32,575 nt of DNA, taken from contig CBDVDH010000046.1 of NCBI GenBank assembly GCA_965372715.1, positions 1-32,575 of the forward strand, read 5' to 3'. Numbering within the stretch: the first letter of the stretch is position 1; the number at the start of each line of letters is the position of its first letter. The notes under the pieces were generated by a model. That model saw nothing but the letters and a program-made list of their open reading frames with translations, was not told where the DNA came from and did no database searches. The position numbers and the translations under genes are program-made. Below are positions 3,744 through 12,083 of the stretch, piece by piece. Source of the DNA: an uncultured bacterium. Its GTDB lineage: Bacteria > B130-G9.

Positions 3744-6329
3744 TTGTCAAGACAGGATGAATCACGCGCGTTCTCGATTTGCGTGCTTGATAGTGATCCC
3801 AGAGGCGCCGCCATATATTCGGACATTTTCTCTTCCGGTCGGGCACGACTTATGGTCTTTTCAGAGGCCCAGGCGGCTCTTGAATATGTTGAAGAGGAGC
3901 GGCTTGACCTGATCATCGGGTCGCTGGAGCTCTCCGATGAGTTCCTGCTTGAGCTCGTCGATAGGGTCAAGAGGCGCCAGCCCGAGGCCGCGCTTCTGAT
4001 TATGCATCCTGGGCTTGGAGCGGAGGATGTCGCGGTTCTGGAGGGATGCGGCGTTCAGGCAGTCGCCCCAGAGGACAGAAGCCCCCTTGCCTACCGAGAG
4101 GCGATAGGTGGCTCGATCAAGAGCCTCTTCGGCGGCCTGGGTTGGGGTTCAAGGGGAGGCTCGAGAGGGCGCCTTGCACCAGCAGACTCGCTTCTTTCCG
4201 GACCACTTGACCTTGAGGTATCCGACATCGTTGATAAGGCTGGCGGACTGATTCAATTGCCGGACGCGCTTGACGAATCCCTTGTTCAGGACGCTCAGCG
4301 CATGGCGGAAGCGGTAGGCAAAGTCGATTCACGTAGTGGCTTGAGTTCTTTTGAGGGTGAGGTGCTGAGGGTTGGGAAATCCAGGGCCGCGCTCGCGCTG
4401 CTTCATTTGTGCGAAACGACGAAGGCGCCTGAACAAGTGTGGCTCCTGATAAGGTTTCTTTCGTTTATTCCATCGTACACTACGAAGCTTGCGCTTGAAC
4501 GGCTATCAAAGTCGCACCCCAACCCCAGGGCGAGGGACCTGGCAAAGAAGAGCTGCAAAGCGCTGCTTCGGAAGTTTCCGATCATTTTTCACGCGGAGCG
4601 GCTGCTTTCAGAGAGAAAGGGACCCTCGGTGTTGAGCAAGGCTGCTGAATCGATAGCCAAATGCGACAGCGAGATTGCGGTCGGTGTGTTGACAAGCGCG
4701 CTGGGGGCCAAAGGGGCAATGGTTCAGCGCGCCGCGATCAGGGGTCTTGGCATGGTAGGCACCGAGAGCGCCTTGAAGGTCATATTCAGAAGGTTGAGGA
4801 TATCCGGGCTTATTCGCGAAACGGCCTTCTTCCAGGATTCATACGACGCCAAGCAACATCTGCTATACATTGAGGCGCTGGCAGCCATTCTCAGGACGAC
4901 GAATGACGAGCATCCTGAAGCGTCCCAGGAGGTTGCCCTGGAGCTCCGGTCCAACGACACAAGGGCAAAGCTCAAGGCGATAGAAATCGTAGGCCTTTCA
5001 AGGACGGCGTCATGTTGCGAGATGCTCTCTGGGCTGATTCGGTCCCGCGACTGGCGCATCCGGATGTCGGTTCTCCAGGCGGTCGCGCGTTCGTCGGACC
5101 CACGTTCGCTTGACGTCATACGCGGCTTCGTTGATGACCCGAATCAGGCGATCAGCAATCAAGCGATGGAGGCTTTGGAGCGGCTGAGGATGAGGGATGA
5201 TCTTAGAAAGGCCCTTCAGGATGGCCAGGACAGGGTGAAAGCCTCGGCAGCGGCGGCGCTCGGCAGGCTGACGGACCAAGAATCAGTCAGTGAACTTGTC
5301 AGGCTTGCGTTCGGCGAGGACCGGGACGCAGCGCACGAGGCGTTGAAGAGCCTGGGAAAGATCGCTGATCCCAGCTGTGTTCCCGGCGTCGTGCAGTTGC
5401 TCTCGCAGTCTTCCAGGCCAGAAATCGTTGCGGACGCAGGGTATTGCCTCGGCAGAATCGCGACAGACAGTTCGCTTGAGGCACTTATTCAGCTGGCAGA
5501 GCCGCGCATACGCCGTCCGGATTTCAGATTGCCGCTTATCATCAGGGCGATTGGGGCCACTGTAAACTCTGAAAGATGGGAGCGGAATGATGCCTCGATG
5601 GAGAAGGTCTTACTGTTGCTTCAAAAGGCTGGGATCGCTTCTGATGATGCCACTAGACTCGAGATCGCAGGTATCCTTCTTCATATAAGGGGGCTGAGTC
5701 TCAGGTCATGCGACAACATGCTGCTCCTGCTTGAGAAACTCGCCGTTCGGAGGTCTGAATTCACTCCTCAGCAAAGCCGAATGTTCTCAATCTCCCGTAG
5801 GGCCATCGAACACATCCGCAGGAAGAAGTTGAGGCTGCACGAGTTTGAAAAGACCCTTGATGGAATCCGCCAGATACTTGAATCGTTGCCGGCGCGTCCT
5901 GACGGCGAGAAGCACCGTATGTTCGCGGCGCTCGGCGCCCTGCTGTCCTCTATACCACTGGCCGAGCGAAATAAGAACGCTGTCGCGGAGGCCGCAGTCG
6001 GTGCGCTGTTGAAATGCCTGAACGACCCGCGGACAAGCTGGAAAGACCGGGCGTCGGCCATAAAGTCTCTGAGCATGATTGGCGAGCGTCGGACTCTTCC
6101 CATGCTTCGAGAGCTCAAGAGAGCTCAAGAGCCGTATTTGATGGGGCTGGCCACCCGAGCAATACGTTCAATCATCAGGAAGAACCTTCTCGCGTCCAGC
6201 TCGCAGGAGACACCGCCCAAGGTCGAGGAGGAGCAGCCGGCTATGGGAGACAGCATCTCGGACCTTTCAGATTGCGGATTGCGGATTGCGGATTGTGGAT
6301 TGGCGAGCAGCAACCAGCCCATTTCGTAG
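3744..6329 (+). CDS. HEAT-repeat protein with N-terminal receiver-like (probably pseudo-receiver) domain
   Basis: 861-aa ORF; N-terminal ICVLDSD...LDLIIGSLEL has the REC fold pattern; HEAT/PBS-like repeats (VQRAAIRGLGMVG, VKASAAAALGRL, AAHEALKSLGKIAD, DRASAIKSLSMIG); the TTG start is uncertain. Confidence 0.8.
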   Translation: MSRQDESRAFSICVLDSDPRGAAIYSDIFSSGRARLMVFSEAQAALEYVEEERLDLIIGSLELSDEFLLELVDRVKRRQPEAALLIMHPGLGAEDVAVLEGCGVQAVAPEDRSPLAYREAIGGSIKSLFGGLGWGSRGGSRGRLAPADSLLSGPLDLEVSDIVDKAGGLIQLPDALDESLVQDAQRMAEAVGKVDSRSGLSSFEGEVLRVGKSRAALALLHLCETTKAPEQVWLLIRFLSFIPSYTTKLALERLSKSHPNPRARDLAKKSCKALLRKFPIIFHAERLLSERKGPSVLSKAAESIAKCDSEIAVGVLTSALGAKGAMVQRAAIRGLGMVGTESALKVIFRRLRISGLIRETAFFQDSYDAKQHLLYIEALAAILRTTNDEHPEASQEVALELRSNDTRAKLKAIEIVGLSRTASCCEMLSGLIRSRDWRIRMSVLQAVARSSDPRSLDVIRGFVDDPNQAISNQAMEALERLRMRDDLRKALQDGQDRVKASAAAALGRLTDQESVSELVRLAFGEDRDAAHEALKSLGKIADPSCVPGVVQLLSQSSRPEIVADAGYCLGRIATDSSLEALIQLAEPRIRRPDFRLPLIIRAIGATVNSERWERNDASMEKVLLLLQKAGIASDDATRLEIAGILLHIRGLSLRSCDNMLLLLEKLAVRRSEFTPQQSRMFSISRRAIEHIRRKKLRLHEFEKTLDGIRQILESLPARPDGEKHRMFAALGALLSSIPLAERNKNAVAEAAVGALLKCLNDPRTSWKDRASAIKSLSMIGERRTLPMLRELKRAQEPYLMGLATRAIRSIIRKNLLASSSQETPPKVEEEQPAMGDSISDLSDCGLRIADCGLASSNQPIS
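6270..6304. repeat. Heptamer tandem repeat (GATTGCG)x~5 inside the 3' end of the HEAT gene
   Basis: gattgcg x3, gattgtg, gattggc; encodes DCGLRIADCGL. Confidence 0.9.
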
Positions 6330-6398
6330 GGGCGGTGCTTGCCCCGCCCTACGTGCATTCGCAAATCAGAAGAAGGGTGCAGCGAGCAGCACCCCTAC
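6326..6398. repeat. Divergent GTAG REP doublet, 73 bp
   Basis: GTAGGGGCGGTGCTTGCCCCGCCC ... GGGTGCAGCGAGCAGCACCCCTAC; its GTAG supplies the HEAT gene TAG stop. Confidence 0.8.
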
Positions 6399-6424
6399 AC
6401 CACGCAAGGCGGACCGGCCGATTC

Positions 6425-6454
6425 ATTCGTGCAATTCGTGTTCATTCGTGGTTT
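6425..6454. repeat. ATTCGTG short repeat x3 (9-10 nt period)
   Basis: ATTCGTG at 6425, 6434 and 6444. Confidence 0.75.
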
Positions 6455-6552
6455 CACCTTCCGCCGCATCCTGAAAGTCTCACAAAAACAAGGCCGGGTC
6501 GAATGCCTCGGCCGCGGCCAGAATGCCCAGTGGCGCAAGACGAGCAAGTGGC

Positions 6553-6595
6553 AATTAGGTAATGCCCAATGAAATAGGTAACGAATTGGGTAATG
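6553..6595. repeat. 12-mer direct repeats AAWTRGGTAAYG x3
   Basis: aattaggtaatg 6553, aaataggtaacg 6572, aattgggtaatg 6584. Confidence 0.65.
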
Positions 6596-6698
6596 ACTGT
6601 GGTAAAAGCTGTGAAGGCTCAGAGGGACCACAGTTGGACACGAGGACCGGATGACTAAGAAGCCGATTTACTGAGTTTTAACGCGATGATATCACTGG

Positions 6699-6895
6699 TT
6701 CTCATTTTATTAGCACCCGACTTCAGTCGGGTGGCCTGAGGAGGCCGAGGCGCCCCCTCCCTCTCCTCCCTTCCCGGAATCATCATCTGAAGAGGATAGA
6801 AGGGAGGTCTCGGTGTGCCGCACATCCCCCATCTGAAGATGGGGGTTAATGAGAATCGTAGCCGTCTGCATCGCCTCGGCTGAAGCCGGGCGATG
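6699..6895. mobile_element. Non-autonomous palindromic element with TTCA/TGAA-loop hairpins (REP or IS200/IS605-end-like)
   Basis: CACCCGAC-TTCA-GTCGGGTG (6714-6733) and CCCCCATC-TGAA-GATGGGGG (6826-6845) lie in opposite orientation, bounded by TTCTCATT/AATGAGAA; third hairpin CATCGCCTCGGC-TGAA-GCCGGGCGATG (6869-6895); no transposase. Confidence 0.55.
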
Positions 6896-8028
6896 ATCTG
6901 ACCGCGAGGTTCGGCCGCGGCTTCTCCTATCCGAATCTGAATAGATTCCGCCAATTCTACCTGGCCTATCCTCGGGAGGGCATTCTCTCGACACTGTCGC
7001 GGAAATCAGACCAAGAACATCAGGCAGAGAAATACGCGACACCGTCGCGTATTTCACAATCTGAATCATCGAACAAAGCACATGAAGGGATCTGCCAGAC
7101 ACCGTCTGGCGATTCCGGCGCTCTGCCAGCTGATCAGAAATCCACGGTGATTCTTCAGACAGTGTCCGAAGAATCGCAATCATCTGCCGCTGAGGTTGTC
7201 CTGCGCCATGCGGCGGCATGCTTCCCGCTGCCCTGGTCCGCATACGTCCGCCTGCTCTCAGTCAAGAAGGAGAATGCCAGGCGCTTCTATGAGACCGAAG
7301 CCCTGCGCGACGGTTGGTCAGTGCGGCAACTCAATCGACAGATCAACTCCCAGTTCTATGAGCGCACGGCCCTATCCCGAAACAAGGCCGCTATGCTGAG
7401 AAAGGGGAAGATGGGCTTGCCGGAAGACGCCGTGACGCCTGAGGAAGCGATTAAGGACCCGTATGTCCTGGAATTCCTTGGGCTCAAGGACGAGTACTCC
7501 GAAAGCGAGCTGGAAGAGGCGCTTATCGGGCACCTGGAGACCTTTCTCCTCGAGCTTGGCGGCGATTTCTGCTTCATTGCCAGGCAGAAGCGCTTGCGCA
7601 TCGGCGATGAGTGGTATCGCGTTGACCTCCTCTTCTTCCACCGTCGTCTGCGGTGCCTAGTCGTGATTGACTTGAAGGTCGGAAAGTTCACGCACGCCGA
7701 CGCCGGCCAGATGCACCTCTATCTCAATTATGCCCGTGAGCAATGGGTGCGCGAGGGAGAGAATCCCCCCGTTGGCCTGATTCTCTGTGCCCAGAAGGAC
7801 GAAGCCGTCGCGCGATACGCCCTGGAGGGACTTCCCAACAAAGTGATGGCGTCCGAGTACAGAACCGTCCTGCCCGACGAGGAAACACTGGCTGCTGAAA
7901 TCAAGCAGACGCGGGCCATCCTGCAAGGCAGATATAGCATCGCATTCCCATCGCCGAAAGAGGCTAGGTCAATAAAGGGCGCAAGGAAGAAACCGGGCTC
8001 CCTTGGCAAAGGAGAGGAAGAGGATTGA
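6895..8028 (+). pseudogene. DUF1016/YhcG-family PD-(D/E)XK nuclease-domain gene, 5'-truncated
   Basis: The frame is open from 6862 with DLTARFGRGFSYPNLNRFRQFYLAYP, LPWSAY, RRFYETEALRDGWSVRQLNRQI, KDPYVLEFLGL, VDLLFFHRRLRCLVVIDLK and GQMHLYLNY; in-frame stop at 6859-6861 and no ATG/GTG/TTG before 7147, so the usual N-terminal helices are missing. Confidence 0.85.
6981..7175. repeat. In-frame array of four ~27-bp palindromes with GAC-ANN-GTC core in the YhcG linker
   Basis: Centres at 6994, 7042, 7102 and 7162; the 7029-7055 copy is a perfect 12-bp inverted repeat. Confidence 0.85.
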
Positions 8029-8040
8029 GCTGTGTATGTG

Positions 8041-8115
8041 AAGCCCCGCCGTCGGGCGCAGCCTTTGAACGGAATGATTCAGTCCATTAACACGGTTGCG
8101 TTGACTGGCGGCTTT
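8041..8115. other. Long imperfect inverted repeat between yhcG and the protease gene
   Basis: AAGCC-CC-GCC-GTC-GGG-CGCAGCC ... GGTTGCG-TT-GAC-T-GGC-GGCTT. Confidence 0.5.
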
Positions 8116-8124
8116 GATTATACT
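8096..8124 (+). promoter_or_regulatory. Candidate sigma70 promoter for the protease gene
   Basis: TTGCGT-N17-TATACT, 80 nt upstream of the ATG. Confidence 0.45.
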
Positions 8125-8203
8125 GTGCCCAGCACTGCACGCGTTGGCATTCTGGCCACCGGGTCGTGATGAATGATGCAGCTTACAGAAGGGGGAGTCG
8201 GAG

Positions 8204-9412
8204 ATGATCATGAGTAGGAATGGCCTGACCGGTTTGGTTGCGATCGCATTTGCCTTCGTCGCTCTGTTCGCAATCTGCGCGTATGGTTCCGAAGAAGAGT
8301 TACGGCAGATACAGGAAGCCCTTAGACAAAAGGGCGATCCCTGGGTCGCTTCTATGAATCCCATATCAGAGATGCCGCTCGACGAACGACGCGGAGTCTC
8401 TGGAGCTTTGACTCGCAGTGAGTCCGAGCTCCGGCGTGGAAGGGTACCCCGTTTTCGGCCAATGGATTTACCCAGTCATTTCGATTGGCGCGACAACAAC
8501 GGCAATTGGGTGACATCTGTCAAATATCAAGGGGCCTGTTCGTGCTGCTGGGATTTCGCGGCCACAGCATCAGTTGAGTCTGGCACTATCATTAAACACA
8601 ATCGCCCCGGTTATGACTATGATCTTTCAGAGCAACACATTCTTTCCTGCGCAAACGCGGGCGACTGTGACTACGGATATCCCTCCGATGCGCTGAGCTA
8701 CTACATGTCGGACGGAAGTCCCGACGAGGACTGCTTCCCTTATGAGGCGGATGACTCCATTCCTTGCTCTCAAAGCTGTTCCGACTGGCGATCCCGAGCT
8801 CAGAAGATAGAAAGCTGGGAGTGGGTCACTCGTGATAGCGCCAACGTTGAGGCTATAAAGGCAGCGGTCTATCAGTATCCCGTCACTTGCAGAATGGAGC
8901 TTTATGATGATTTTTATTACTATATGGATGGGATCTATGAATATAGCTGGGGGAGTTATAACGGGACCCACATTGTCTTAATAATTGGATGGGATGAAGA
9001 CGAGCAATACTGGATCGCCAAGAACTCATGGGGGACGTGGTGGGGAGAGGACGGGTTCTTTAGGATCAGGTGGGGCGAGGTCAGTTTTGGGACCTATTCT
9101 ATACTGATCGAGCCAAGCGACGACACCCCCTGGTATGGCCCGGAGCTGCGCGACCCTACGTACTCACCAAAGTCAGGCCGGACCGACACAAAGTTCACCT
9201 TCACAGTTCATTACTACCACGCTGGCGGCCAGGCGCCGAGCAGGATACAGGTGTTCGTGAACGACGCGCCTCACGACATGACGCTCGATTCGGGCACCGC
9301 CGACAATGGAACTTATAGCTGGACTGGGCTCATCCCCGAGGGTGGGCTGGCACAATATCACTTCGAGGCGGAAGACAGCTACGGTAGCTCTGCTATCTGC
9401 CTCCGTCGTTGA
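8204..9412 (+). CDS. Secreted papain-family (C1A) cysteine protease with C-terminal beta-rich domain
   Basis: Signal peptide; LPSHFDWRD, QGACSCCWDF (catalytic Cys), LSEQHILSC, THIVLIIGW (His), KNSWGTWWGEDGFFRI (Asn). Confidence 0.93.
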   Translation: MIMSRNGLTGLVAIAFAFVALFAICAYGSEEELRQIQEALRQKGDPWVASMNPISEMPLDERRGVSGALTRSESELRRGRVPRFRPMDLPSHFDWRDNNGNWVTSVKYQGACSCCWDFAATASVESGTIIKHNRPGYDYDLSEQHILSCANAGDCDYGYPSDALSYYMSDGSPDEDCFPYEADDSIPCSQSCSDWRSRAQKIESWEWVTRDSANVEAIKAAVYQYPVTCRMELYDDFYYYMDGIYEYSWGSYNGTHIVLIIGWDEDEQYWIAKNSWGTWWGEDGFFRIRWGEVSFGTYSILIEPSDDTPWYGPELRDPTYSPKSGRTDTKFTFTVHYYHAGGQAPSRIQVFVNDAPHDMTLDSGTADNGTYSWTGLIPEGGLAQYHFEAEDSYGSSAICLRR

Positions 9413-9470: not shown

Positions 9471-10691
9471 ATGACAACACGATTAAGACTTGTCTCACCT
9501 CCTGCCGCTGCTGAACAGGGCCGGACAAAGACAAAAAAGCACTCAATCTTCGCTGAGATTTGCGATCAGGTAAATATCCCTGTTGAGAAAGCATGGTTGT
9601 CAGAAGGAAGCACGGTGACAGCGGAAGGTCTGGAGGCAGTTCTCACTAGCGTGGCGAAGGGGACAGGCACTCCGCCAAAGCACTTATCTGCTCACGAGAA
9701 GCTTGTGTGGAGATTGCTCCACAAAAGCACAGAGGCGATGATTCTGGCGCTCGAAGTGATTAACAAGCCATCAATCTCATATCGGCTGGAGTGCTCTCTC
9801 TTGCTTCTGCTCAATGCCTGGGAATCCCTTCTCAAAGCGAGGATAGTCCAACTGGAGAGTGATACTCAAGCGATCAATCAGGAGGATAACCCGAAGAGAA
9901 CGATACCGTTCTTAAAGGCTCTCAGGAGCATTTTCGTTTCCGAGAAGGATGTCATCAGAATGAATCTTGAGAGACTTTACGATCTCCGAAATGACGCGGC
10001 ACACCTTTTCATTTCGGTAGTGCCTGCGGAACCAGTGCTGATGTTTCAGGCCGCCGTTTTCAATTATGAGGAACAGTTGAATATATGGTTCGAAAGATCT
10101 CTCTGCGATGGGATACCGCTGGGGATGATGTTCTTAGTCCCGAACATAGATGCCGCCATACATTCGGTTGATTCTCCCGTGCTAACTAGAAATCTCTCGC
10201 CTGAGAGTCTCGCGTATCTAAGGGAATGGCAGGAGAGCTTCAGGAACGACCTCGATTCAATTCCCGAGAATCAGATGGGCTCTTATGTTGTCCCGCTGGA
10301 CATCAGGCTTTCAGTAGTGAACAACCCCAAGAAAGCCGATGTGTTGGCTTACTTGGACTCCCTGGGAGCGCCCCAATCAGCAGTTGCTGTCAGGTTTCAG
10401 CACTTGACTGATAAATATCCCCTAACCTATAAGGAGGATTTGGTACCCCAGGTGAAGATGGCAATGCCGGAGGTCAGTCAAACGCACATAAACTACGTGA
10501 TCAAGCGCTTCAATATGAAGAACAACCGAGAATACGCCGACTATAACCCGTGGTCTAAGAGGCTCCGGGAGAGGTACCAACAGACCGGCGAACTGCCCAA
10601 AGGCACACCGAGCATTTATAACCAGAAAGCTGTGGAGTTCATCCTTGAGAAGCTGAGGGACGATGAAGTTAGAGGAGCGCTGGGCTTATGA
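9471..10691 (+). CDS. DUF3644-domain (HEPN-like) protein
   Basis: LLHKSTEAMILALEVINKP..YRLE...LLLNAWESLLKA matches the DUF3644 pattern; RNDAAH fits the HEPN R-x4-H motif; visibly more AT-rich than the backbone. Confidence 0.8.
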   Translation: MTTRLRLVSPPAAAEQGRTKTKKHSIFAEICDQVNIPVEKAWLSEGSTVTAEGLEAVLTSVAKGTGTPPKHLSAHEKLVWRLLHKSTEAMILALEVINKPSISYRLECSLLLLLNAWESLLKARIVQLESDTQAINQEDNPKRTIPFLKALRSIFVSEKDVIRMNLERLYDLRNDAAHLFISVVPAEPVLMFQAAVFNYEEQLNIWFERSLCDGIPLGMMFLVPNIDAAIHSVDSPVLTRNLSPESLAYLREWQESFRNDLDSIPENQMGSYVVPLDIRLSVVNNPKKADVLAYLDSLGAPQSAVAVRFQHLTDKYPLTYKEDLVPQVKMAMPEVSQTHINYVIKRFNMKNNREYADYNPWSKRLRERYQQTGELPKGTPSIYNQKAVEFILEKLRDDEVRGALGL

Positions 10692-10871: not shown

Positions 10872-12083
10872 TTATTCGGCCGCCAGCTGCCGTCTGATGA
10901 GGCGCTCCATGCCGTTGACCATCGCTTCCCATGACTTGCCCTGGGCTGCTTCTTGAAGCATCGCCCTGTGTTCTGGACCGAGGCTTAGACAGCGGTTTAT
11001 AGCGTCGTCGAATGAGGCGGGGCTGTCGTAGAACTCGACTAGGTCCGGGTAGTCTGCCACGACGTCAGGCACGCGGGATGACACAACCGGTAGGGCGGCG
11101 CTCAAATACTCCAGCGTCTTTGTCGGGCTGATCTTCATCGTGAGCTCCGTAATGGCAAACGGCATCATCGCGACGTCAAACGCCTTCATAAACCCTGCGA
11201 GCTCGGCGTAAGGCTTCGCGCCGAGGTAAAAGACGTTTGGCATCCCGAACAGCCGCTCTGGATTGACTTTCAACAGCGGGCCAATTAGGACGAACGACCA
11301 ACCGGGGTGCGCTCCTGCGCTTGCCTCGAGCAAGTCGTAGTCGAGGCGCTCATCCACGGCGCCTACGTAGCCGATAATAGGACGTGGGATTGCCTTCATC
11401 TCGTCGGAGATCGTGGTGTCCGGGGCAGTTGCCTTCGCGAAATGCTCAAACTCAACGCCGCATGGGAAGAGATGCACGTTCGGGTTGAACTCCTTTTTGG
11501 CCTCAAAGAGCGAGCGGCCACCGGCGAAGATGATGTCGGCTCGCTTTAGCACCCGTCGTTCAAACTGCTGCGTCTCGGGCTCCGAGTGCACGAACGCCTG
11601 GAACTCGTCCATGCAGTCATATACCACTAGGTCGGGGCTCAAGAGATCGAGTATCCGTAGGTCCCTGGGATGATACAGCCACAGAACCAGAGGTCCAGTA
11701 TCCGCGCGCCGTCGGGCGCCTTTTCTTATCATCGAGGCCACCTTGCGGGTGTAAAGCCGCCGGTTGACGCTCCTGAAAAGAAGCGCCTTGCCGGTCATCG
11801 GCAAGAACGGGACGTAGCTCACCTGGACGTTTGCATCCGGCGAAAACGTGTAGCAGAACGTCGAGGTTCTCGGCAGCGACCAGAACGCCTTGGTGGGGAC
11901 CTGGCAGAAATACTCTACCGGATGGCGCCTCGCCAGCCGGCTCATGACCTGCTGCGGTCGTTGGAACAGGTTCTTGTCCCAAATCAGATGAGAGAGGCAC
12001 GCGATTGAGAATAGCACGTCGGGGGCATGCCGCTCACCTCTTGACTGCGACTCCGGATGCCGCAGCCCGTAGGGGCGGCTCAC
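10872..12083 (-). CDS. GT-B (GT4/TuaH-like) glycosyltransferase; start uncertain
   Basis: FQRPQQVMSRLA, VVYDCMDEF, PIIGYVGAVDERLD, SPTKTLEYLSAALPVVS. Confidence 0.92.
   Translation of the reverse strand: MSRPYGLRHPESQSRGERHAPDVLFSIACLSHLIWDKNLFQRPQQVMSRLARRHPVEYFCQVPTKAFWSLPRTSTFCYTFSPDANVQVSYVPFLPMTGKALLFRSVNRRLYTRKVASMIRKGARRRADTGPLVLWLYHPRDLRILDLLSPDLVVYDCMDEFQAFVHSEPETQQFERRVLKRADIIFAGGRSLFEAKKEFNPNVHLFPCGVEFEHFAKATAPDTTISDEMKAIPRPIIGYVGAVDERLDYDLLEASAGAHPGWSFVLIGPLLKVNPERLFGMPNVFYLGAKPYAELAGFMKAFDVAMMPFAITELTMKISPTKTLEYLSAALPVVSSRVPDVVADYPDLVEFYDSPASFDDAINRCLSLGPEHRAMLQEAAQGKSWEAMVNGMERLIRRQLAAE

Follow-up and report, generated by a model that had tools for sequence, protein, structure and literature searches.

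Tandem in-frame DNA palindromes at a fixed position in YhcG/DUF1016 nuclease genes

Introduction

Inverted repeats and dyad-symmetric elements have been described in several genomic contexts, some of which overlap with protein-coding sequence. In a set of mitochondrial genes, inverted repeats lie inside the coding sequence, both arms are translated, and the protein and a strict secondary-structure element are preserved together (2019, PMC6649704). These repeats are long (up to 284 bp), numerous, specific to one lineage and scattered over several genes. PARCELs are tandem in-frame repeats of about 25 residues, whose DNA shows dyad symmetry and which are horizontally spread and variable in copy number (PMC2996958). 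They define repeat proteins of unknown function, many of them membrane-targeted. The REP/REPIN elements, which are associated with RAYT transposases, are short hairpin-forming palindromes of 20-40 bp with solo copies at gene 3' ends, and IS elements are reported to target them (PMC3733652, PMC1525189). REPs are extragenic, high in copy number and tagged by GTAG or CGTC.

Integron attC sites conserve structure while the sequence varies, with conserved outer boxes and a free, complementary middle, and are read as folded single-stranded DNA. They are at least about 57 nt long, imperfect with extrahelical bases, lie between cassettes and need IntI. Quasipalindrome template-switch mutagenesis in Escherichia coli copies one arm of an imperfect palindrome onto the other in one step, thus producing concerted compensatory changes. 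It is a source of mutation hotspots, but is not known as a mechanism that keeps a coding palindrome in place across a gene family. Finally, CRISPR arrays alternate partly palindromic repeats with spacers at a period of about 60 nt, in a defence-associated context.

The locus analysed here contains four short palindromes within a gene of the YhcG/DUF1016 family. In contrast to the mitochondrial repeats, a single short dyad of 25-27 bp sits at one homologous codon position across a bacterial gene family spanning many phyla, with covarying arms and local tandem copies. Unlike PARCELs, the dyad is a fixed single site inside an enzyme gene, although a 26-residue, 78-nt array at locus L076 of our homologue collection looks similar in form. 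Unlike REPs, the palindromes are intragenic, phase-locked and few per genome, with no linked RAYT gene apparent, without a dedicated search for one; an IS1 junction in an E. coli copy (see below) recalls the targeting of REPs by IS elements. None of the distinguishing features of attC sites was seen, and the action of template switching at these sites is inferred only. Literature on DUF1016/YhcG/COG4804, on hairpins or palindromes in yhcG, on coding or intragenic palindromes, and on palindromes or inverted repeats in RhuM, Bro-N and DUF1016 genes yielded no description of this element, in searches resting largely on listings and the openings of abstracts.

Architecture of the locus

The window, i.e., the whole stretch of DNA analysed, comprises 32,575 nucleotides of an uncultured bacterium (GCA_965372715.1, contig CBDVDH010000046.1, positions 1 to 32,575). 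An earlier note, based on the sequence alone, had described an array of four covarying palindromes at 6981-7175. The features relevant for this study are the following:

6651-6665, forward strand: relic of the yhcG start (ATG and codons for MTKKP), in a different frame from the rest of the gene and followed by a stop two codons later
6666-6891, no strand assigned: segment replacing about 70-85 N-terminal codons of yhcG, built from short repeats dispersed in this genome, several of which form 9-bp hairpins with TTCA or TGAA centres (e.g., 6714-6733 and 6826-6845)
6862-8031, forward strand: remaining open frame of the YhcG/DUF1016 gene, 388 codons plus the stop; the first in-frame start codon is the GTG at 7147
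6981-7007, no strand assigned: palindrome unit 1 (ILSTLSRKS), 8 of 11 Watson-Crick pairs plus 1 G.T; a hybrid with a left arm of the ILST type seen in the phylum relatives and a right arm of the IYATLSRK type
7029-7055, no strand assigned: palindrome unit 2 (KYATPSRIS), a perfect 12-bp inverted repeat around ACC
7089-7115, no strand assigned: palindrome unit 3 (ICQTPSGDS), 8 of 11 pairs (7 contiguous) plus 1 G.T
7149-7175, no strand assigned: palindrome unit 4 (ILQTVSEES), 11 of 12 pairs around AGT
6996-7148, forward strand: mosaic linker segment of foreign ancestry, from the centre of unit 1 to the left edge of unit 4
7234-7236, forward strand: conserved Trp codon of the LPWSAY motif, the landmark for the family-wide palindrome position; the ancestral unit starts 30 nt upstream of it in unexpanded family members
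7444-7890, forward strand: YhcG_C PD-(D/E)XK nuclease domain

The gene matches Pfam YhcG_C (PF06250, E 1.2e-58 over residues 195-343), a place also found by a whole-genome search, as well as the candidate defence family PADLOC PDC-S02. The N-terminal domain DUF1016_N (PF17761) is incomplete, since only profile positions about 54-137 are present. The gene is a 5'-disrupted member of the family. The frame-3 translation of the relic start reads ...GHEDRMTKKPIY*, and the same start, MTKKP, is seen in three full-length relatives of the same phylum (loci L082-L084), with which the DNA aligns. The replacing segment shows no homology to these relatives. For its repeats, blastn finds many copies on other contigs of the genome. 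The neighbouring genes code for an H+-PPase, a rhomboid, a HEAT protein, a C1 peptidase and DUF3644; no restriction-modification, recombinase or cas gene is found among them.

The array lies between ...FRQFYLAYP and LPWSAY. The flanks 6892-6995 and 7149-7300 are 86-88% identical to L082-L084, and homology to these relatives ends in the 3-nt centre of unit 1, at 6993-6995. The intervening piece (6996-7148) has no match in them, and its best matches are two other homologous loci, L042 (76% over 63 nt) and L012 (75% over 60 nt). A profile search of PDB sequences with 30 sequences yielded no solved relative. A structure model of a full-length relative (P0002) is poor overall (mean pLDDT 58.8, pTM 0.41), and was used only to infer that the linker (residues 106-160) is predicted with low confidence (pLDDT below 50).

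The four palindromes exceed coding expectation

The observation put forward in the earlier note holds. All four units are present in the same codon phase, and their centres at 6994, 7042, 7102 and 7162 are spaced by 48, 60 and 60 nt. Pairing over the 11-bp arms is 8, 11, 8 and 10, and the flanking g/c pair extends unit 2 to a perfect 12-bp inverted repeat and unit 4 to 11 of 12. Units 1 and 3 are weaker than the note implied.

Chance is excluded by three lines of evidence. In total, 37 of 44 arm positions pair, compared to 22.3 +/- 2.7 in 20000 synonymous-codon shuffles using the gene's own codon usage, a control that the note had itself named as a test. The shuffle maximum was 32, and 0 of 20000 reached 37. 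In the whole 3.56-Mb genome, 7 of 1657 GACNNNGTC sites have 10 or more of 12 arm pairs; units 2 and 4 score 12 and 11, and the only other site reaching 11 is an unrelated one on another contig (C32). A genome-wide repeat was rejected on these grounds. Moreover, the RNA fold of 6960-7200 forms units 2, 3 and 4 as very stable predicted hairpins, at -88.6 kcal/mol and z = -4.07. A scan of 5500-9000 on either strand against Rfam 15 gave no match at E <= 1. Public sequencing runs yielded a list of 17, all containing 9% or less of the sampled words and none of them an RNA data set with this stretch, which says nothing about expression.

A family-wide coding palindrome

The motif is not special to the window. 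In 79 close homologous ORFs, 155 distinct units were chosen by peptide pattern only. They average 8.83 of 11 pairs compared to 5.20 +/- 0.11 in shuffles; 111 units have 9 or more pairs, against 3.1 expected (maximum 9 in 1000 shuffles), and 38 are perfect, against 0.02 expected. None of the 1000 shuffles reaches the observed pairing. The synonymous third base of Leu at codon 2 tracks the second base of codon 7 in 39 of 47 cases: CTC pairs with G in 24 cases, CTG with C in 11 and CTT with A in 4, while 8 of 47 are off-diagonal. Codon choice inside the units is far from the rest of the same genes, as Thr is ACR in 128 of 129 units against 588 of 1274 elsewhere, and Ile is ATT in 100 of 110 against 315 of 1264. 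An explanation by protein selection alone was rejected accordingly.

The position of the palindrome is likewise conserved. In 41 of 58 distant DUF1016 genes the best 11-3-11 hairpin in the 24 codons before the conserved Trp has 9 or more of 11 pairs, and in 40 of 58 a hairpin with 8 or more pairs sits exactly at -30 nt in phase 0, with unrelated arms and peptides. If all 58 genes are taken unfiltered in the fixed register (a 12-bp stem with a 3-nt centre), all 12 pairs change on both sides. There are 193 compensatory cells against 75 +/- 6, and the covariation score is 0.574 against 0.161 +/- 0.016; 0 of 500 shuffles reach it, and slid registers score 0.08-0.17. Among 174 gene pairs with equal-length linkers, which are not independent, there are 270 compensatory double changes, 8 non-compensatory doubles and 462 single-arm changes.

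The symmetry appears to act at the level of DNA. GT versus AC mismatches number 24 v 57, 8 v 8 and 7 v 5 in the three sets, and thus G.U is not favoured over A.C on either strand. The centre reads R-N-Y, or R-S-Y on both strands, and the Thr codon at the first centre position is ACA or ACG in 128 of 129 units and never ACC. The first and third centre bases are often complementary (0.56-0.80). The mismatch and centre statistics were computed on units pre-selected for 8 or more of 11 pairs. The outer edge is sharp, with pairing of 0.97 at the outermost arm position, then 0.51 and 0.31 outside it. Palindromes with the same 11-bp arm and 3-nt centre also sit at fixed positions in RhuM and Bro-N genes, which encode no YhcG nuclease. 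In E. coli K-12, only a 79-aa RhuM fragment with an internal stop was found.

Expansion, solo copies and breakpoints

Units are gained, duplicated and diversified. Homologues carry one to about five, and one locus has a 19-unit array with a 78-nt period, outside a yhcG frame and next to an intact yhcG. E. coli K-12 yhcG contains three units plus two solo copies nearby, and these 5 are the only such palindromes in 4.64 Mb, all within 8.4 kb around yhcG. The solo copies each begin 15 nt after a stop codon (gltD and yhcG), on the transcribed strand.

Several breakpoints fall on palindromes. In addition to the mosaic segment of the window, an E. coli yhcG truncation ends at the last base of the third unit (palindrome c), and an IS1 junction lies 3 nt inside it. 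In strains without yhcG, homology resumes 10 nt beyond the post-gene solo palindrome. Yet, not all breakpoints are at palindromes: E. coli classes start at query positions 72, 146, 152 and 435, the hyper-divergent blocks between otherwise near-identical genes begin about 180 nt upstream of the first palindrome, and the window's own 5' disruption ends at 6892. Alignments also revealed discordant histories of the N- and C-terminal parts of some genes, e.g., 76% versus 98% identity for loci L034/L050. In E. coli, single-arm mismatches sit in both major allele classes (1241 records at 99% identity or more, 2318 at 95-99%; one sequence of each class was examined), which suggests neither fast correction nor strong selection on that time scale.

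Interpretation

The four units are best explained as tandem in-frame copies of a YhcG-family coding palindrome, a dyad with 11-12-bp arms around a 3-nt centre, in which the outer ATT/AAT and, in this subfamily, also the inner GAC/GTC are fixed, while the middle base pairs are free to change but stay complementary. The analysis demonstrates that the dyad is ancestral to the gene family, starting exactly 10 codons before the conserved Trp in most DUF1016 genes sampled, and that in this subfamily, which includes E. coli K-12 yhcG, dyad and spacer have been duplicated into the linker. It also demonstrates that the peptide follows from the DNA symmetry, not the other way round, and that what is kept is strict Watson-Crick dyad symmetry without wobble tolerance on either strand. 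From these data we infer, tentatively and from sequence alone, that the element acts as DNA, as a hairpin- or cruciform-prone site, rather than as an mRNA structure or a peptide repeat. In this view, the arms are kept alike by fold-back (intra-palindrome template-switch) copying, by selection against mismatches, or by both, and the main visible effect is to make this point of the gene recombinogenic and fragile. The palindrome would seed unit duplication and long arrays, exchange of linker segments between lineages (as at 6996-7148), deletion and IS junctions, and solo palindromes left beside the genes. A benefit for the gene, for example through modular shuffling of a candidate defence nuclease, is not among the things shown. 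Fold-back copying does not by itself explain why the palindrome has stayed at one codon position throughout a very diverged family, or why unrelated RhuM and Bro-N genes share the same 11+3+11 geometry. In the genome studied here the gene is a 5'-disrupted remnant, and hence the array is a relic.

The interpretation given in the earlier note is supported in part. Its claims that the units are nucleic-acid-level modules and that protein-level selection cannot explain them are borne out, whereas a programmable or self-recording system is not supported, and the proposals of a self-encoded site for the gene's own nuclease and of processed structured RNA are weakened. Moreover, the note missed that the element is family-wide and ancient, and that this copy of the gene is 5'-disrupted.

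Among the alternatives, two appear unlikely but possible. The hairpins might work in the mRNA, where they would control translation or decay of a potentially toxic nuclease message or protect 3' ends, with the coding sequence having to accommodate them. The stable predicted fold and the placement of the solo copies after the gltD and yhcG stop codons fit such a role, which is not excluded; yet, the lack of a G.U preference on the sense strand, the constraint on the first and third centre bases, which a 3-nt RNA loop does not need, and the absence of an Rfam match argue against it. Alternatively, the palindromes might be selected, structure-specific DNA sites read by a protein, either bound or cut by the gene's own nuclease, as proposed in the note, or used as exchange points for gene modules by a host or mobile-element recombination function. 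The YhcG nuclease domain was predicted to resemble archaeal Holliday-junction resolvases and YraN (PMC1189080), and an extruded cruciform is a four-way junction. The fixed position and length, the conserved end and top base pairs with a free middle, the breakpoints and solo copies at palindromes and the discordant gene histories are in agreement with this view. However, RhuM and Bro-N genes have the same kind of palindrome without encoding this nuclease, the arms are too variable for sequence-specific binding, stems of 11-12 bp in general extrude poorly as cruciforms, and no dedicated recombinase is linked.

A small mobile palindromic element that inserts in frame into genes, in the manner of REP/REPIN, Rickettsia palindromic elements or PARCELs, is very unlikely. 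Solo copies, the array outside a yhcG frame and the horizontal spread of PARCELs speak in its favour, but the element is not dispersed: the only strong copies in this genome are in this gene, and those of E. coli K-12 are local. The constant codon position and phase across distant subfamilies points to inheritance and not repeated insertion. A CRISPR-like system acquiring spacers from invaders would fit the repeat-plus-spacer periodicity of 48-60 nt and the match to PDC-S02, but is contradicted by the evidence. The repeats differ from each other, the whole array is translated in frame, there is no cas gene or leader, and the spacers are ordinary coding linker segments, recognisably conserved among homologues from different phyla. 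Arms and spacers have no match in 50,697 phage or 72,556 plasmid records (blastn, E <= 0.01), and the spacers have only chance-level matches of 13-17 nt in the host genome.

Implications

A more far-reaching possibility, which we consider unlikely, is that the palindrome is a selected, structure-read DNA signal shared by at least three gene families typical of defence islands and mobile elements, YhcG, RhuM and Bro-N, always with the geometry of an 11-bp arm plus a 3-nt centre. It would serve as a hairpin-based exchange point that lets these genes swap modules, duplicate and relocate. This would be an undescribed recombination system written inside coding sequence, and the Holliday-junction-resolvase-like YhcG nuclease could be one of its enzymes.

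Conserved nucleic-acid structure that overrides amino-acid sequence inside a bacterial protein gene is rare. Here it holds at one codon position across distant subfamilies of a nuclease gene family that is widespread, horizontally mobile and still uncharacterised. For annotation, the linker should not be read as a peptide repeat or as an "insertion", and the palindromes mark places where these loci break, expand and recombine. The recurrence of the same geometry in RhuM and Bro-N genes suggests a general property, so far unnamed, of genes that ride in defence islands and mobile elements.

The four paired units in the linker of a YhcG/DUF1016 gene

The earlier note described four palindromic units at 6981-7175, and this observation held. 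All units are in the reading phase of a single open frame, which encodes a YhcG/DUF1016 protein (PF06250 at E 1.2e-58 and PF17761 at E 1.8e-21). The features of the gene and its surroundings are as follows.

6651-6665: the surviving start and first five codons of yhcG, in another frame
6666-6891: dispersed short repeats in place of the 5' part of yhcG, with hairpins at 6714-6733 and 6826-6845
6862 to the stop at 8029-8031: the open frame of the YhcG/DUF1016 gene
6981-7175: the array of four units
7029-7055: unit 2, a perfect 12-bp inverted repeat around ACC
6996-7148: a linker segment without a match in the relatives of the same phylum
7147: GTG, the first in-frame start codon left
7149-7175: unit 4, paired at 11 of 12 positions
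9471-10691: a DUF3644 protein gene

Units 1 and 3 pair at 8 of 11 positions plus one G.T each. Summed over the four units, 37 of 44 arm positions are complementary, whereas replacement of each codon by a synonymous one drawn from the gene's own usage yields a mean of 22.3 (sd 2.7, maximum 32), and none of 20000 shuffles reaches 37. In the whole 3.56-Mb assembly, 7 of 1657 GACNNNGTC sites have 10 or more of 12 paired arm positions. Units 2 and 4 score 12 and 11, and only one other site (on contig C32) reaches 11. The observation is therefore real, and the element is not a genome-wide repeat. An unrelated perfect 11-bp palindrome family (gggtgggtcaa...ttgacccaccc) with variable 3-nt centres occurs at least five times in the same genome (contigs C16 at 51752 and 51790, C26 at 38093 and 38163, and C31 at 1593).

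State of the gene and its neighbourhood

Full-length relatives in three genomes of the same small phylum (seven genomes available) begin MTKKP... and have about 94 residues before RQFYLAYP. In the window the start and its first five codons survive at 6651-6665, yet in another frame, and the sequence from 6666 to 6891 has no homology to those relatives. This segment consists of short repeats that occur on many other contigs of the same genome, with roughly ten or more blastn hits each for about 6670-6760 and 6824-6896. Several of the repeats form perfect 9-bp hairpins with TTCA or TGAA centres, and they look like a MITE- or REP-like repeat family of this candidate-phylum genome. The gene is thus 5'-disrupted, and the first in-frame start codon left is the GTG at 7147.

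The neighbours are an H+-pyrophosphatase, a rhomboid, a HEAT-repeat protein, a C1 peptidase, a DUF3644 protein, a glycosyltransferase and RibF. The DUF3644 gene (9471-10691) lies two genes downstream of the broken yhcG, after the C1 peptidase gene. No restriction-modification genes are present in the neighbourhood.

The units are general in the subfamily and the peptide follows the DNA

The 120 best protein homologues (63-80% identity; 53% for the homologue P0006) come from sources labelled with many phyla. In the 50 linkers that could be extracted by pattern, the same peptide units recur: ILSTVSRES, IYATLSRKL, KYATPSRIS, ILQT.SEES and ICQTPSGKS. DNA was retrieved for 80 loci, and in 79 ORFs, including the window, every nonamer matching ...T.S... 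in the 130 residues before the LPWSAY-like motif was taken, a selection made by peptide and not by pairing. The 155 distinct units average 8.83 of 11 Watson-Crick pairs; 111 units have 9 or more pairs, and 38 are perfect. Synonymous shuffles give a mean of 5.20 +/- 0.11, with 3.1 units of 9 or more pairs (maximum 9 in 1000 shuffles) and 0.02 perfect units.

The synonymous third base of a CTN leucine at codon 2 predicts the second base of codon 7: CTC goes with G (Gly) 24 times, CTG with C (Ala) 11 times and CTT with A (Glu) 4 times, while eight of 47 cases are off-diagonal. Codon choice inside the units is also unlike that in the rest of the same genes. Protein-level selection cannot produce these patterns.

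Table. Codon choice in the palindrome units and elsewhere in the same genes (position; codons; in units; elsewhere)
Thr, codon 4; ACA or ACG; 128 of 129; 588 of 1274
Ile, codon 1; ATT; 100 of 110; 315 of 1264
Glu/Lys, codon 8; GAA or AAA; 87 of 90; 1750 of 4313

The palindrome is family-wide and fixed in position

DUF1016_N matches were sampled in 151 genomes from each of two other phyla and in five further genomes. This gave 71 distinct ORFs, of which 60 were 300-500 aa long and 58 had the conserved Trp aligned. In 41 of the 58, the best 11+3+11 hairpin in the 24 codons before the Trp has 9 or more of 11 pairs, and twelve are perfect. In 40 of the 58, a hairpin with 8 or more of 11 pairs starts exactly 30 nt before the Trp codon, in phase 0. 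The arms and peptides are unrelated to each other (IQHALRAEL, IGYTLCSQL, IVVTLSRQF, IGQQPAAQL, IVQRVVAQL).

All 58 genes were then taken unfiltered in that fixed register, and a 12-pair stem was counted. Every pair changes on both sides, and there are 193 compensatory cells, against 75 +/- 6 in shuffles. The covariation score is 0.574, against 0.161 +/- 0.016; none of 500 shuffles reaches it, and registers slid by 1-3 columns score 0.08-0.17. E. coli K-12 yhcG belongs to the subfamily of the window and has three in-frame units: IHQTMSGEL at 10 of 11, IPQTPSAEF at 10 of 11 and IWQTLSAKS at 11 of 11.

Dyad symmetry of DNA or RNA

Among units with 8 or more of 11 pairs, G.T mismatches are not commoner than A.C mismatches, with 24 v 57 in the subfamily, 8 v 8 in the distant YhcG genes and 7 v 5 in RhuM genes, although a folded RNA of either strand should tolerate G.U far better than A.C. 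The 3-nt centre reads R-S-Y, and the same description holds on the other strand. The first and third centre bases are complementary in 56%, 70% and 80% of the three sets, which a 3-nt loop does not require. Pairing stops abruptly at the outer edge: it is 0.97 at the last arm position, then 0.51 and 0.31 outside it, and in the distant genes a 12th pair holds at 0.88, followed by 0.40. On this sequence evidence we read the pattern as strict dyad symmetry of the DNA. The RNA would nevertheless be predicted to fold well (z = -4.07).

Duplication, mosaicism and breakpoints at the palindromes

Homologues carry from one to about five units. At one locus (L076 1-1201, corresponding to G312:C189:18341-19764, L195), 19 yhcG-type units with a 78-nt period and 79% matches between copies lie just upstream of an intact yhcG, between a gene with a nuclease-like C-terminus and the yhcG start. 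A frame of 585 codons stays open through this array, with the repeat unit ILQTVS[AV]ES....

The gene in the window is a mosaic. The segments 6892-6995 and 7149-8028 are closest to the relatives of the same phylum, at 86-88% identity over the first 150-nt flanks and 81-84% over the rest, while the segment 6996-7148 has no match in them. It resembles the IYATLSRK...KYATPSRIS type of linker instead, with best matches to the homologous loci L042 (76% over 63 nt) and L012 (75% over 60 nt). The left junction lies in the centre of unit 1, and this explains the mismatched arms of that unit.

The E. coli K-12 chromosome has exactly five matches to the unit pattern, all within 8.4 kb: three inside yhcG, one beginning 15 nt after the gltD stop and one beginning 15 nt after the yhcG stop. 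The latter two are perfect solo palindromes (2633-2657 and 10971-10995 of the K-12 locus L159), their arms equal the right arms of in-gene units a and b, and they are the only copies outside yhcG in the whole chromosome. Of 5426 complete genomes, 3560 hold the array. In other strains, one recurrent class has yhcG cut exactly after the last base of palindrome c, another class has an IS1 end 3 nt inside palindrome c, and in strains without yhcG homology resumes 10 nt past the solo palindrome. Other breakpoint classes, at query positions 72, 146, 152 and 435, are not at palindromes. The two major E. coli allele classes, of which one sequence each was examined, differ by single-arm changes only, and each keeps an imperfect unit, which suggests that correction or purging is slow on that time scale.

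Some pairs of otherwise near-identical yhcG genes (the loci L034/L050, L010/L040 and L035/L045) differ sharply in a block that runs from about 180 nt upstream of the units to the Trp. These genes are 93-100% identical over the nuclease half and 80-100% identical at the 5' end, yet drop to 45-70% identity in a block of about 300 nt ending at the conserved Trp (about nt 230-600 of the ORFs), a hypervariable or exchanged cassette around the palindromes. Among 174 non-independent gene pairs with equal linker length, the arms show 270 compensatory double changes, 8 non-compensatory doubles and 462 single-arm changes. In several pairs the arms are unchanged, while 17-40% of spacer positions differ.

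Related phenomena

The closest published phenomena are coding palindromes in Nematomorpha mitochondria (PMC6649704) and PARCEL repeats (PMC2996958). Rickettsia palindromic elements, integron attC sites and quasipalindrome template switching also belong to these closest phenomena. YhcG itself was predicted in 2005 to be a nuclease like a Holliday-junction resolvase or YraN, with no function assigned (PMC1189080), and PADLOC lists it as candidate PDC-S02. Our literature searches found no description of the palindrome. The window presents a decaying four-unit copy with a junction inside a palindrome.

Interpretation and palindromes in other gene families

The units are most likely an ancestral, in-frame DNA palindrome of the YhcG family, amplified here in a linker that the structure model predicts with low confidence (residues 106-160 of the full-length relative P0002 have pLDDT below 50, in a poor model). 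The pairing beyond synonymous expectation, the fixed codon position in most of the distant genes sampled and the covariation of the arms are results of the sequence comparison, while the physical behaviour of the site is inferred from them. Our preferred, still tentative reading, held with less than even confidence, is a hairpin-prone DNA site. Its arms would be kept alike by fold-back copying, by selection against mismatches, or by both, and it would make this point of the gene prone to duplication, exchange and breakage.

A role of the hairpins in the mRNA is possible but unlikely, and the same applies to a protein-read structural DNA signal, possibly involving YhcG itself. A small mobile element is very improbable, and a CRISPR-like recorder is the least likely of these readings. 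The interpretation of the earlier note was partly supported: protein-level selection indeed cannot account for the units, but the proposed programmable or self-recording system fails, since the spacers are conserved coding linker and match nothing in the phage or plasmid collections or, beyond 13-17-nt chance hits, elsewhere in the host. The note had also suggested a binding or cleavage site for the gene's own nuclease, and the occurrence of the palindrome in other families argues against this.

Palindromes of this type are not specific to YhcG. In 18 of 20 RhuM genes (from loci L165-L194), the best hairpin of the whole gene lies at -67 or -58 nt from the YNLD motif, with 9 or more of 11 pairs and covarying arms. 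In 18 of 21 Bro-N genes (loci L202-L222), the best hairpin lies 118-142 nt into the domain, and seventeen of these have 9 or more of 11 pairs, although several are near-identical and hence not independent; here, too, the arms covary. Both families use 11-bp arms and a 3-nt, mostly A/T, centre. DUF1016 and RhuM are both listed as enriched beside programmed-inversion targets in restriction loci (PMC9881135). Rather than to a site made for YhcG's own nuclease, the palindromes in RhuM and Bro-N point to something common to these defence-island and mobile-element genes.
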